This document shows positions 16,252 through 33,605 of a DNA stretch of 64,000 nt, piece by piece. Position 1 is the stretch's first letter. Each line of letters starts with the position of its first letter. A program made the position numbers and the translations under genes. Under the pieces are notes generated by a model that saw only the letters and a program-made list of their open reading frames with translations, did no database searches and was not told the DNA's origin. This DNA is from an uncultured Clostridia bacterium (GTDB lineage: Bacteria > Bacillota > Clostridia > Oscillospirales > Oscillospiraceae), in assembly GCA_945875335.1 (NCBI GenBank), contig CAMCKD010000003.1, positions 5,693 through 69,692 of the forward strand, written 5' to 3'.

Positions 16252-16740
16252 TTATTCCAGCGCCGCCCGCAGCTTTTTCAGCGCCCGCTTTTCAATGCGG
16301 GATACATAGCTTCTGCTGATACCGGTGCGCTCAGCCACCTCCCGTTGGCGCAGGGGTGTTTCTGTGTCCAGGCCGTAGCGCAGGCGAATCACCAGACGCT
16401 CCTGGTCCGTCAGGCAGCGATCCACCGCCCGGCGAAGCTGCTCCACAGACTCCCGGCCAGCCACCTGTTCCAGCAAATCCACGTCCTCGCTGACCACATC
16501 CATCAGCGCCAGCGGGGCTCCATCCGTTCCCGTGTCAATGTAATCCGACAAGGACACATCCTGGGCACTCTTCCGCCCCGCCCGAAAATGCATCAGGATT
16601 TCATTTTCCACACACCGGGCCGCATAGGTGGCAAGCCTCGCCCCCTTGGTGGGGTCGAAGGTAGTGATGCCCTTGATGAGGCCGATGGTTCCAATGGAAA
16701 TCAAATCCTCCTGGTCGGAGGTTTGGGAGTAGTATTTTTT
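16252..16740 (-). CDS. sigK: sigK 3' segment (sigma regions 2.2 to 4.2; spoIIIC-like half of a split gene)
   Basis: Frame open from 16764 reads KKYYSQTSDQEDLISIGTIGLIKGI..ATYAARCVENEILMHFR..ISRSYVSRIEKRALKKL; no native start codon. Confidence 0.85.
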   Translation of the reverse strand, partial: KKYYSQTSDQEDLISIGTIGLIKGITTFDPTKGARLATYAARCVENEILMHFRAGRKSAQDVSLSDYIDTGTDGAPLALMDVVSEDVDLLEQVAGRESVEQLRRAVDRCLTDQERLVIRLRYGLDTETPLRQREVAERTGISRSYVSRIEKRALKKLRAALE

Positions 16741-18368
16741 AGACGGTTGATGCTCGTGGGTAGGTTATGAGGCGAGTAAATCGCCTCATATTGCTGCCCC
16801 AACTTGAGATACACATCTAGATGGATTTCCTCCTTCGTACTCTCCTTTTTCACAACAATTTTCTCTAAAATCGTCGTAAGAAGTGCCGAGTTTGGCTCAC
16901 CCTCGAAACTCAATTCCCGGTCGAGAACCCGCCGGATTTCGGCTTCATTCAGCTTGCCGTCACCGGCGCGCTCTTCTTCCTTCCGAATGGCATCCAGTTG
17001 GCTTTCACACTCCCGGAGCCGGACATTCAGGGCGTCGTTTCGCTTTTTGAACTCGGGTGCATCCAGCGCCCCGGCAATGCTCAAATCCAGCAGACGATCC
17101 TTCTTTTTCTCAATCTCGTCCATTTCCTCCAGCACCCGGCTGCGGAGCCTGTCATAGTCCACCTCCTTTGGGACGCTGGTAATCACCTTCACCAGAGAAT
17201 CGATGATGGCCTTCTTATCCTTTATCAGTTCCTTGAAGATTTCCGTGAGAATTGCATCCACTTCACTGCTGCGAATCTGGGGGGCAGAGCACCCGGATCG
17301 GCCGTGGCTGCGGTACACCTTGCACTGCCAGACCTCCTGCTTGCCCTTTTTGTTTTCCAGCACCTGCCGGTGGAAGGTAGTGCCGTGTTCTTCGCAGATG
17401 ATTTTTGCACTGTAGGGATACCGGTTTTGAAAGCTGACGCCGCTGCTGTGACTCATGGTTTCTTCTCTCCTTTTCTTATACAGGGCATTTGCACGATCCC
17501 ATAATTCTTCCGGGACAATGGCGGGAATGGACGGGTCGGAGTACATGACCCATTCACTTTCATCCAGAAATGCTTTTTTCTTGGTGCGGTAGTCGAGGCT
17601 GGAGGTCTTGTTGCCGCAGTACCAGCCCTTGTATTTTGGATTCTCCAAAATATGGCGAATGGTCAGGGTATTGAAGGCATTCCCCTCCCGGCTGGTGTAG
17701 CCCATCTCCGTCAGCTTCTTGGAGATACTCCGTGTACCCAACTTCTGGTTGGCGTAGAGGTCGAAAATAATGCGGATAATCTCCGCTTCCTCCGCATTTG
17801 TGGTCAGAACGCAGTCCTTTTTGTCGTAGCCGTAGAGCTTATCATTGCCCAGCACATGACCGTTTTTGATGGCCTGCCGGAAACCGAATTTCAGTCGCTC
17901 TGAAAGTTTCCGAATCTCATCCTGGGCAACACCTGCCATGATGACCAGCCGGAATTCGCTGTCCGTGTCCAGGGTGTTGATATTGTCGTTCTGGAACAGT
18001 ACCCCCACATTGTTTTCCAGCAACTCCTGGGTGTATTTGATGCTGTCCAGGGTGGAGCGGGAAAACCGGGAGATTTCTTTGGTGATGATGAAGTCAAACA
18101 TCCCGGCTTTTGCGTCCCGAATCATGCGGTTGAAATCATCCCGCTTCTTTGTGGTGCCGCCGGAAATGCCTTCGTCGATGTACCCCGGCACAAAGCGCCA
18201 GTTGGGCTTACTTTGAATCAGCTCTGTATAATACTGCACCTGATTTTCCAGACTGTTAATCTGTTCGTCCTGATCTGTGGAAACCCGGGCGTAGAATGTG
18301 ACCCGGAGGGGCAGGTCGTAGATTGACCTCCCCGCCCGCAGCTCAGCACGGATTTTTCTCACATCCAT
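16701..18368 (-). CDS. large serine recombinase (SpoIVCA-like)
   Basis: YARVSTDQDEQ catalytic Ser motif, resolvase + recombinase + zinc-ribbon + coiled-coil architecture; AGGAGG 6 nt before the ATG at 18368. Confidence 0.9.
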   Translation of the reverse strand: MDVRKIRAELRAGRSIYDLPLRVTFYARVSTDQDEQINSLENQVQYYTELIQSKPNWRFVPGYIDEGISGGTTKKRDDFNRMIRDAKAGMFDFIITKEISRFSRSTLDSIKYTQELLENNVGVLFQNDNINTLDTDSEFRLVIMAGVAQDEIRKLSERLKFGFRQAIKNGHVLGNDKLYGYDKKDCVLTTNAEEAEIIRIIFDLYANQKLGTRSISKKLTEMGYTSREGNAFNTLTIRHILENPKYKGWYCGNKTSSLDYRTKKKAFLDESEWVMYSDPSIPAIVPEELWDRANALYKKRREETMSHSSGVSFQNRYPYSAKIICEEHGTTFHRQVLENKKGKQEVWQCKVYRSHGRSGCSAPQIRSSEVDAILTEIFKELIKDKKAIIDSLVKVITSVPKEVDYDRLRSRVLEEMDEIEKKKDRLLDLSIAGALDAPEFKKRNDALNVRLRECESQLDAIRKEEERAGDGKLNEAEIRRVLDRELSFEGEPNSALLTTILEKIVVKKESTKEEIHLDVYLKLGQQYEAIYSPHNLPTSINRLKNTTPKPPTRRI

Positions 18369-18531
18369 GTGCATCCTCCTTTCTTGCCTCAGTATCGCAG
18401 AAAAAGTCCGGCAAGTCCAATGTGCCCAGGATTTTGTTCCGGGATTTGTCGTGAATATCCCGGGAAATCAGTTCCTTATCCAAAAGTGTCTGCAATAGGA
18501 CGCATAGAATATCCTGCTGTACCTCATTCAT
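18343..18531 (-). CDS. small hypothetical protein upstream of and overlapping the recombinase gene
   Basis: 62-aa ORF (MNEVQQDILCVLLQTLLDKELISRDIHDK..); overlaps the recombinase start. Confidence 0.4.
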   Translation of the reverse strand: MNEVQQDILCVLLQTLLDKELISRDIHDKSRNKILGTLDLPDFFCDTEARKEDAHGCEKNPC

Positions 18532-18583
18532 GCCCACTCACCTCGTAACACCCTATGCGTGTTCCTTTTCATCATGCCGCACC

Positions 18584-32496: not shown

Positions 32497-32763
32497 TCAG
32501 TTCTCGACCATCACCTCCAGCATCATCCGAGCTCCCAGGCGGAAGCTGTTCTGGAACAGCAGACATTCTGCCATATCCTGAAATTCCCGCACACTGTCTG
32601 CATACCGGGAGAACAACTCCTTCTGGGTATCCGTCATGGTAGCCTGGAGCTTTTCTTCGTTCCGGCTGATTAGTTGAAGGGCTTCCTTGTATTCCACACA
32701 GGGGCATGTGTCATATTCTGTTGGTTCGATATTGCCGTACCAAAATTCTTCAAGAATTCTCAT
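32497..32763 (-). CDS. small conserved transposon-associated protein (DUF6809-like)
   Basis: MRILEEFWYGNIEPTEY..; ATGA overlap with the upstream TnpV-like gene. Confidence 0.5.
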   Translation of the reverse strand: MRILEEFWYGNIEPTEYDTCPCVEYKEALQLISRNEEKLQATMTDTQKELFSRYADSVREFQDMAECLLFQNSFRLGARMMLEVMVEN

Positions 32764-33119
32764 GTCGCATCCTCCCCGTAAATTAGCTCCTGGAGTATGA
32801 TTTCCTCTGCCCGGTTCCGGATATTGTTCATAGCACCAACCCAAGCCATCGGGTCAGCAGCTTTCAAGCCCTCTGTCACGCCCTCGGCGGTTTTCATCTG
32901 CTCGATTATCCGATCCAGCCTGTCCTGCGCCTGCTCATTCAGGTCAGCCAGATAAGTCCACAGCTTGCCGGACAGAATCAGGCAGTTGTACTGAATCGGC
33001 TTGTGCTCTTTCAGATACTCCCGGCGCATCCGCCCCCACTTGCCGATGGGGCGTGTTTCTTCCGGCAGTTCCAGGTCAGGAATGAAGTAATCGCCCACTC
33101 GAATGTATTGCATTTCCAT
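32760..33119 (-). CDS. TnpV-like transposon-encoded protein
   Basis: ..YIRVGDYFIPDLELPEE..IGKWGRMRREYLKEHKP..LILSGKLWTYLADLNEQA pattern; AAGGAGG 7 nt before ATG 33119. Confidence 0.65.
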   Translation of the reverse strand: MEMQYIRVGDYFIPDLELPEETRPIGKWGRMRREYLKEHKPIQYNCLILSGKLWTYLADLNEQAQDRLDRIIEQMKTAEGVTEGLKAADPMAWVGAMNNIRNRAEEIILQELIYGEDAT

Positions 33120-33407
33120 AGTCATGCCTCCTTTACCTCGGTACTGTTATGATACCGAAGGATCGGGATGCAGTCGAATGTGCCGCCTTGCAAAGTTTAT
33201 TACATTGATGTAACAAACTTGAAAATTTTACGACTTTATTACATGTCAGCAACCATCCATGCAGCGTTCAAGCCCGGCAAGTGTCAACTACCTGCCGGGC
33301 TTGTCCCTATTCACATCAACACCGCATTCCAGTGGATTTTCGCGGTTCTGCCATAGTACGCGGACAAAATTGCACCATTTGTCCTCCATAGAAAACTTCC
33401 GCGGGCA

Positions 33408-33605
33408 TTATCCCTTATTCATAATATGGGCCACCAGGCGCAGGTTTCGTTCCACCAGGATGTTGCGGGCTTCGATGTCGCCTTGGGCGCAGAGGGCCAG
33501 ATAGTGTCGTTCTTCTTCCTCAGTGAGGGGCTTGGGGAAGCTGCCGGTGGAAAGCTGCAGGGAATAGAGCAGACTGCTGAGCATCAGCCATGAGGAAAGC
33601 AGCAT
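33408..33605 (-). CDS. sigK: sigK 5' segment (pro-sequence + region 2.1; spoIVCB-like half); last 4 codons and stop are element-derived
   Basis: [56 protein letters not shown] then MNKG*; GAGGTGA RBS. Confidence 0.85.
   Translation of the reverse strand: [65 protein letters not shown]

Follow-up and report, generated by a model that had tools for sequence, protein, structure and literature searches.

Skin elements, the DNA segments that split the sigma factor gene sigK, are a textbook example of developmental DNA rearrangement in bacteria; few of them have been studied, all at mid-gene or 3' sites of the gene. In Bacillus subtilis 168, sigK is split by a 48-kb defective prophage and is rejoined in the mother cell by a large serine recombinase (LSR), SpoIVCA, together with Skr, a 64-aa open reading frame (ORF) that lies directly upstream of and overlaps spoIVCA and has a sigmaE promoter (PMC6957869). 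In C. difficile 630, sigK is split by skinCd, a ~15-kb element with its LSR (CD1231) at the edge and on the same strand as sigK, and whose excision needs a small acidic recombination directionality factor (RDF; CD1234) under sigmaE/SpoIIID control (PMC5025042). A survey by Galperin et al. in 2022 described 15 skin elements of 2.6-48 kb in diverse Firmicutes, in which an LSR is the sole common gene; it was found at the edge in every case, in general directly before the 3' piece of sigK (bioRxiv 10.1101/2022.02.25.481979); in C. difficile and in most of the surveyed elements it is next to the 3' piece and on the same strand (Table S7 of that work). In addition, the C. perfringens phage PhiS63 integrates at nt 427 of sigK, with skinCd and skinCt at a similar location, and is excised precisely (PMC3442830). 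Here we analyze a stretch of 64,000 nucleotides from an uncultured, Faecousia-like gut bacterium of the Oscillospiraceae (assembly GCA_945875335.1, contig CAMCKD010000003.1), referred to in its full length as the window, in which sigK is split by an element of about 16.7 kb. In our estimate there is a probability of roughly 0.8 that this is a skin-type intervening element, i.e. an integrative element that was inserted in codon 63 of sigK by its own LSR. The skin arrangement itself is well known; the site at codon 62/63 of sigK is new with respect to all 15 surveyed elements.

The interrupted gene and its insertion are made up of the following parts:

33418..33605, minus strand: sigK 5' piece, with 62 codons that run from the start codon at 33605 and cover the pro-sequence and region 2.1, and with the AA core at 33419..33418
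16741..33417, minus strand: intervening element, 16,677 bp between the two AA cores
16252..16740, minus strand: sigK 3' piece, with codons 63-224, which cover regions 2.2 to 4.2, the stop codon at 16254..16252 and the AA core at 16740..16739

As integrated, the 5' piece is read as a minus-strand ORF of 65 aa (33605..33408), which starts with MLLSSW and, after the sigK-derived part, extends through NKG and a stop codon to 33408. The 3' frame, on the same strand, is devoid of a start codon, is open from about 16764 and reads KKYYSQTSDQEDLISIGTIGLIKGI...ISRSYVSRIEKRALKKLRAALE. Conceptual joining of 33605..33418 with 16738..16252 gives 675 nt that encode a pro-SigK of 224 aa, so that sigK is found here, as in the known skin elements, in the form of two non-adjacent pieces that join in frame to a full-length SigK. 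The joined protein matched the NCBIfam SigK model NF004471 with 277.8 bits (cut-off 252) in a single ungapped stretch covering residues 14-222, and from this continuity it follows that no residues were lost or doubled at the join. It scored 266.9 bits with TIGR02846, under the stricter cut-off of that model (298.65), and 199.7 bits with the best SigE model, far under its cut-off of 339; the protein is thus above the curated SigK cut-off of NF004471 and fits SigK better than the SigE models. It carries a pro-sequence, its closest named relatives in the protein search were annotated as SigK of Candidatus Faecousia, and a tblastn search of the 64-kb window found no further sigK-like sequence. The two minus-strand pieces are the halves of one SigK and abut exactly. 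An earlier, sequence-only reading of this DNA had proposed two such halves of a SigK of ~220 aa, which is borne out by the join, the model match and the intact conspecific allele described below; the startless frame from 16764 with regions 2.2 to 4.2 that it had pointed out is indeed seen in the sequence. The 65-aa ORF was also correctly described in coordinates and SigK content, but it ends in three unrelated codons (NKG) and not in four.

The evidence that defines the insertion came from an uninterrupted copy of the gene in the same species. The protein search listed an intact SigK, P0001, as a full-length match with 100% identity to the conceptual join; in the nucleotide comparison 223 of the 224 residues were identical, with a single A37T difference. 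This protein is encoded on a conspecific 17.6-kb ENA metagenome contig (L001), where sigK has the same neighbours as in the window: on the upstream side a PAS/Rce1-like gene, on the downstream side AzlD and MgtC. Positions 1-8298 of the contig aligned to 41703-33415 of the window with 97.2% identity, and positions 8294-9148 to 16740-15886 with 98.2% identity. Overall, the contig is collinear with both flanks at 97-98.5% identity, without exactly the 16,679-bp insert and, since both flanks are collinear and sigK is uninterrupted there, it represents the empty site (attB). The join that had been predicted from the sequence is confirmed to the nucleotide by this allele; the alignment of the halves to intact SigK proteins, which had been put forward as a check, showed that they abut (one continuous NF004471 match, 223/224 residues identical to the intact SigK), and the intervening element, which had been put at ~16.7 kb, corresponds to an insertion of 16,679 bp. 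The split and the intact allele differ in nine nucleotides, eight of them synonymous and one non-synonymous, which means that neither sigK piece is decaying. Beyond the collinear part, the alignment breaks between 15636-15886 of the window and 9148-9249 of L001, in the AzlC/AzlD region, where the window is ~150 bp longer.

Comparison of the junctions allowed the boundaries to be set exactly. The sequence reads CATATTATG-AA(33419-33418)-TAAGGGATAATG between the 5' piece and the element, CAACCGTCT-AA(16740-16739)-AAAATACTAC between the element and the 3' piece, and CATATTATG-AA-AAAATACTAC at the attB of L001, the junction sequences being CATATTATGAAAAAATACTAC for the rejoined gene (attB) and CAACCGTCTAATAAGGGATAATGCC for the predicted circular form (attP). 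Only the AA dinucleotide is common to both ends of the element, and the insertion, made up of 16741..33417 and a single core, therefore amounts to 16,679 bp. The crossover corresponds to the first two bases of codon K63, nt 187-188 of sigK, i.e. the codon 62/63 site. LSRs use a 2-nt, non-palindromic core, and the arms of the reconstructed attP are imperfectly inverted (GCATCAACCGTCT and, as the reverse complement, GCATTATCCCTTA).

The recombinase and the two features ahead of it that may take part in the control of excision sit at the element's edge, on the side of the 3' piece:

18368..16701, minus strand: LSR, 555 aa, with Resolvase, Recombinase and Zn_ribbon_recom domains
18531..18343, minus strand: small acidic ORF, 62 aa, pI 4.74, candidate RDF
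18538..18577, minus strand: candidate sigmaE/sigmaK-type promoter motif, conserved and non-coding

The LSR starts with MDVRKI, has a ribosome-binding site (AAGGAGG) ahead of it, and shows domains PF00239, PF07508 and PF13408 and the catalytic-serine motif YARVSTDQ; the resolvase, recombinase and zinc ribbon domains, along with the 2-nt AA shared at the junctions, are those of the LSR class. As in skin elements, its gene is at the edge; it is on the same strand as sigK and spans the junction between the element and the 3' piece. As a result, the sigK 3' piece, read in a different frame (16701-16740), supplies the final 12 codons of the LSR (KNTTPKPPTRRI) along with the stop. In the predicted circular form this tail would be replaced by 35 other residues, IRDNARGSFLWRTNGAILSAYYGRTAKIHWNAVLM (from 33300-33417, minus strand), for a total of 578 aa, so that the C-terminus would vary with the state of the element, from 12 target-encoded residues when integrated to 35 element-encoded residues when circular. 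Because the integrated tail is target-encoded, the C-terminus of an LSR homologue marks its integration site. An exact look-up found no identical LSR protein on record; the best 120 homologues in the database are 78-96% identical, most of the 36 examined end in ...SL[KR]NTTPKPPTRR[IT], which is the sigK-site tail, and one protein, P0206, ends in exactly the tail predicted for the circular form. The catalytic domain is most similar to that of a C. difficile conjugative-transposon recombinase (PDB 3g13, E 1.7e-41), and is distantly related to that of TnpX (PDB 2mhc, E 6e-7 over the catalytic domain).

As for the recombination products, attB was found for this element (L001), and attP only for relatives with LSRs 78-83% identical to that of the window (L002, L003, L181 and L188). 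The contigs L002 and L003, from two samples, carry an LSR with 83% identity followed directly by TnpV and DUF6809, i.e. the other end of the element, and match the attP predicted from the window with 83.6% identity over 548 bp. The other two were found by a degenerate pattern search and show an LSR with 78% identity and the junction GGGCATCACCAGTCT-AA-TAAGGGATAATGCG; the 18-nt degenerate attP pattern had 36 matches, of which only these two were accompanied by an LSR, the rest being due to chance. The attP junctions are located at ~9391 in L002, ~4740 in L003, ~1897 in L181 and ~7304-7321 in L188. About 4 kb away from its junction, L188 has another small ORF, unlike the first, with ParB and a remnant of 27 aa of an LSR N-terminus, a layout that suggests tandem or nested elements.

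The 62-aa acidic ORF is immediately upstream of the LSR gene, overlaps its start by 26 nt and is kept in relatives whose LSR identity is as low as about 69%; Pfam, NCBIfam and PADLOC scans assigned it to no sequence family. By analogy with the small proteins that accompany the recombinases of skin and skinCd, we consider it a candidate RDF. The layout is similar to that of skr and spoIVCA, also a small ORF overlapping the recombinase gene, whereas CD1234 is a separate gene. A paper of 2025 on a virtual pulldown of RDFs does not mention Skr, CD1234, SpoIVCA or TnpX. Ahead of the small ORF the sequence reads GCATGAT (18577..18571)-N13-CATAGGGT (18557..18550)-N5-GAGGTGA (18544..18538, ribosome-binding site)-N6-ATG. 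The motif CATAnnnT is the -10 hallmark of sigmaE/sigmaK promoters, the -35 consensus of sigmaE is KMATAWW, and GCATGAT agrees with the latter in six of seven positions. The combination GCATGAT-N13-CATAnnnT is kept in relatives even where the upstream context is unrelated, with CATA...T invariant, and the sigK promoters of the relatives show a similar pair of boxes, GCAT[GA]... and [CA]ATAnnGTA, ahead of a ribosome-binding site. These similarities make the motif at 18577..18538 a candidate sigmaE/sigmaK-type promoter, from which the small ORF and the LSR would be expressed.

With these data the locus can be compared with the described elements. The sequence-only reading had noted a large serine recombinase gene abutting the 3' half, in agreement with the LSR that overlaps the junction at that point, and had considered the arrangement to be that of both B. 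subtilis and C. difficile. This holds for C. difficile, where the LSR adjoins the 3' piece and shares the strand of sigK, but not for B. subtilis, where sigK is equally split and associated with an LSR gene but spoIVCA is beside the 5' piece (spoIVCB) and on the opposite strand. The position of the LSR at the edge, just upstream of the 3' piece, is also the usual one among the surveyed skin elements. The integration site differs from all of them: the 5' fragment has 62 aa here, compared to the 130 aa of skinCd, whose site is in the 3' third of sigK, to the 129-aa 5' ORF of the mid-gene B. subtilis site, and to the 114-152 aa of the 15 surveyed elements, which are at mid-gene or 3' sites and none at codon 62/63. 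The only surveyed carrier that is close to the present host, Caproiciproducens, uses the mid-gene site. Furthermore, SigK of C. difficile lacks the pro-sequence found here. In our literature search, of incomplete coverage, no paper on skin elements at this sigK site in Oscillospiraceae was found.

Relatives of the element were searched for with the LSR as query in one genome per GTDB species, and 80 loci were listed, the candidate stretches that encode a relative numbering at least 502. The sigK site is occupied in 73 of these 80 listed loci: the LSR adjoins a piece of sigK at the same AA dinucleotide as in the window, and the sigK pieces are intact. The hosts are mostly Oscillospiraceae metagenome assemblies, for example of Faecousia and Oscillibacter, while the cultured carriers of LSR relatives include Clostridium leptum DSM 753, Oscillibacter sp. 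PC13, with an element of 5.1 kb, Oscillibacter sp. 1-3, Intestinimonas aquisgranensis CLA-AA-H199, Flintibacter muris and Pseudoflavonifractor sp. 60. LSRs 96-97% identical to that of the window were present in species in which the 3' part of SigK is only 69-80% identical, and one of the elements, in L015, has in addition counterparts of the DUF3987 protein (98% identity), of the HipA-like kinase (96.5%) and of the HTH regulator (86%). Near-identical LSRs in species with divergent SigK, together with the cargo shared with L015, show recent transfer between species, which differs from the vertical inheritance of the B. subtilis skin. Other relatives have only the small ORF and the LSR in common with the window element, and their neighbouring genes differ; complete relatives among the listed loci have a size of 4.6-11.3 kb.

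In the skin-type reading, a sigmaE-type promoter would drive expression of the 62-aa ORF and the LSR in the sporulating mother cell, the 62-aa protein would act as RDF, and both proteins would recombine attL with attR at the AA core, freeing a 16,679-bp circle and restoring sigK, which would then be expressed as pro-SigK. The forespore chromosome would retain the element, so that it would be inherited, its restriction-modification, TIR and HipA-like cargo would serve the host during growth, and it would also move between species. Developmental excision in the mother cell is inferred and seems likely, by analogy with the studied skin elements and given the promoter and RDF layout. Several points weigh against this interpretation. 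The attP of the window element itself, searched for with a 28-nt pattern, was not found in JGI metagenomes or IMG/VR, and L001 could be a strain that never carried the element instead of an excision product. The spacer is of 13 nt in the element motif versus about 15 nt in the sigK promoters. Promoter motif and small ORF are also present in L004, a relative inserted outside sigK (see below), and because of this they are to be taken as features of the element and not as proof of sporulation control. Finally, the host is uncultured, and some Oscillospiraceae have been described as non-spore-formers (bioRxiv 10.1101/2022.02.25.481979).

Some of these points would also fit with plain insertional inactivation, that is, a site-specific element that knocks out sigK and excises only for its own transfer or never, with no developmental role, its carriers being non-sporulating or reliant on rare spontaneous excision. 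The horizontal mobility of the family, the location of a close relative (L004) at a non-sporulation pseudo-site, the failure to find the attP in the two collections mentioned and the fact that the species, as seen in L001, does well without the element are all in line with such a view. However, the sigK pieces are intact in the window, with eight synonymous changes versus one non-synonymous change against the intact allele, and also in the 73 species of the listed loci, which would be unexpected were sigK dead in the carriers; a mother-cell-type -10/-35 motif is conserved ahead of the small ORF and the LSR; and all the skin elements tested experimentally are excised in the mother cell (PMC5025042, PMC6957869). 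We therefore regard inactivation as an unlikely explanation, albeit the one that competes best with a skin-type element.

The remaining genes of the element, which has a GC content of 49.8% versus 55.5-55.9% in the flanks, are, from the LSR side to the end adjoining the sigK 5' piece:

18584..19444, minus strand: ParB_N domain protein, 286 aa (domain scan)
19493..19714, minus strand: DUF6471 protein, 73 aa (domain scan)
20158..22626, minus strand: protein with DUF3987 and NrS-1 polymerase HBD, 822 aa, a primase/helicase-like replication protein of mobile elements
22894..23760, plus strand: HTH_3 (XRE-type) regulator, 288 aa (domain scan)
24142..25275, plus strand: HipA-like kinase, 377 aa, PADLOC candidate defence family PDC-M03A, with Pfam HipA_C under cut-off
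25419..28748, minus strand: HsdR, 1109 aa (TIGR00348, 439.9 vs a cut-off of 284.55; PADLOC REase_I, 6e-243; Pfam agrees)
28795..29544, minus strand: TIR-domain protein (Pfam CAP12-PCTIR_TIR, i.e. CAP12/Pycsar-type TIR; PADLOC PDC-S35, E 6e-92)
29541..30680, minus strand: HsdS, 379 aa (PADLOC Specificity_I, 2e-114; Pfam agrees)
30661..32265, minus strand: HsdM, 534 aa (PADLOC MTase_I, 9e-104; Pfam agrees)
32497..32844, minus strand: DUF6809 protein, 115 aa (domain scan)
32760..33125, minus strand: TnpV, 121 aa (Pfam E 1e-46), at the end adjoining the sigK 5' piece

With HsdR, HsdM and HsdS all found, the type I restriction-modification system is complete. The TIR gene (28795-29544) is wedged between hsdR and hsdS, its stop codon overlapping the start region of hsdS. 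The HTH_3 regulator and the HipA-like kinase (22894-25275, plus strand) constitute a divergent two-gene module, 86-97% identical in the L015 element, that may be a toxin-antitoxin or abortive-infection pair. Judging from these matches, the insertion has the appearance of an integrative element that moves between species, equipped with a replication module and carrying defence genes. Its cargo of restriction-modification, TIR and HipA-like genes distinguishes it from skinCd. No relaxase, Mob or conjugation families were matched among the element ORFs scanned.

The clostridial transposons Tn4451 and Tn4453 are moved by the LSR TnpX via a circular intermediate, with a 2-nt crossover, and encode TnpV. 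The window element shares TnpV with them, but they choose GA sites loosely, whereas it targets codon 63 of sigK with an AA core. Membership in this group was rejected, given that no TnpZ/Mob gene was found in the scanned ORFs and the LSR is only distantly TnpX-like.

That the element could be a defective or active prophage, such as the B. subtilis skin or PhiS63 of C. perfringens, had to be considered, since the known sigK-intervening elements are mostly prophage-like (PMC3442830; bioRxiv 10.1101/2022.02.25.481979) and a few of the relatives are listed in IMG/VR. Nevertheless, scans of 15 ORFs with Pfam, NCBIfam and PADLOC gave no match to capsid, terminase, portal, tail or lysis families, nor to any other structural or packaging family, and among the LSRs of 50,697 deposited phage records none exceeds 41% identity to that of the element; on these two grounds the element is not prophage-like. 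In addition, the close relatives in IMG/VR are short contigs that again flank sigK, and the complete relatives are, as mentioned above, much smaller than the 48 kb of skin or the 33.6 kb of PhiS63. PhiS63, which like the window element integrates into sigK, is a functional siphovirus with a 10-nt attB core and an integrase gene opposite to sigK, in contrast to the non-viral character, the 2-nt core and the same-strand LSR found here. The prophage reading, to which we would give very little probability, was dropped for want of a close LSR relative in the phage database and of the genes that define a prophage. An assembly chimera joining unrelated contigs inside sigK, which might be thought of because the window probably comes from a metagenome-type assembly and the GC content of the element is lower than that of the flanks, can be practically discarded, given that both junctions are on the same AA and the pieces fit together in frame with nothing gained or lost, that 73 independent assemblies of the listed loci, some of them of cultured isolates, have this same junction, and that the LSR frame crosses the junction, with the target-encoded tail kept in most close LSR homologues examined.

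The 73 listed loci at the sigK site fall into two classes, 52 with the orientation of the window and 21 inverted (including L040, L072, L073 and L084), the latter having the 3' end of the LSR gene against the sigK 5' piece and on the opposite strand. The LSR-proximal arm of attP keeps its register in the two classes, with GCTTCAnCCGT-CY-AA in elements oriented as in the window and GCTTCAACCGT-TT-TT in inverted elements, and for this reason the inverted insertion can be explained by a flip of the central dinucleotide from AA to TT. Work on Bxb1 and phiC31 established that the polarity of LSR recombination is set by the central dinucleotide alone. The use of the AA site in both orientations looks like a natural demonstration of this dinucleotide-set insertion polarity. 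In a neighbour-joining tree of the LSRs, built without support values, the two orientation classes are interspersed.

Among the listed loci there are also 17 species (L010, L014, L015, L020, L022, L028, L029, L032, L033, L034, L035, L041, L053, L063, L066, L067 and L074) in which the sigK 3' piece is broken a second time, right after GAAAATG, at codon E109 of the ENEILMH motif, in the classical mid-gene region of sigK. The counterpart in the window, GAAAATG|AAATCCTGATG at codon E109, within 16740..16252, is intact. No more sigK sequence was found beyond the second break within up to 10 kb in those 17 loci, and a distantly related serine recombinase is located near it in L029 and L041. It thus seems that sigK consists of three pieces in the 17 genomes, split by two different elements. 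A doubly split sigK was not found reported in our literature search.

Putting together the evidence from the relatives, a broader proposal can be made, to which we would give about even odds: one LSR lineage would have made the AA of sigK codon 63 a shared landing site across at least 70 gut Oscillospiraceae species; its elements would move between species with changing cargo, here of defence, and insert in either orientation through a change of the attP core from AA to TT; a mother-cell promoter would make them exit in the doomed mother cell; and in at least 17 species they would share sigK with a second, mid-gene element, the three pieces needing two independent excisions. With this locus, the skin phenomenon now includes uncultured gut Oscillospiraceae and a further, new site, with one LSR lineage occupying a single sigK dinucleotide in dozens of species of this family. 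Such a large family, moving between species, provides natural replicates for the study of target choice by LSRs, of dinucleotide-set orientation and of directionality factors, and shows that sigK can be used as a safe harbour for defence cargo. It also has a practical side: annotation pipelines will call these genomes sigK-negative, or the gene a pseudogene, and predictions of sporulation in gut taxa can consequently be wrong.

The relative found outside sigK (L004, at ~11620-11674, and L005) has an LSR with 81% identity, nested among the sigK-targeting LSRs, in a small element with NikA-like/MobC and ParB_N genes that is inserted at the 3' end of a gene for a GH16 glycoside hydrolase. Its target, AA-CAAGCTTTACGCCCGAAG, resembles the sigK arm AA-GAAATACTACGCCCAGAC, and on the basis of this similarity the site is probably a pseudo-attB, i.e. 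an off-target insertion.

Regarding other features of the window, a sigma-70 promoter scan gave 19 promoter-like matches versus 17.2 expected from shuffled controls, that is, control level, and was not used. An Rfam scan of the whole window detected only one tRNA and no RNA element within the split-sigK locus; this tRNA-Leu(CAA), at 44524-44611 on the plus strand, was the only match with either Rfam or ARAGORN and is unrelated to the sigK element. Terminator-like matches amounted to 37, versus 19.4 expected from shuffled controls. An 18/36-bp tandem repeat, TCGGTGGGTTCCGTGGTT, also unrelated to the element, is present in about five copies at 41323-41426.

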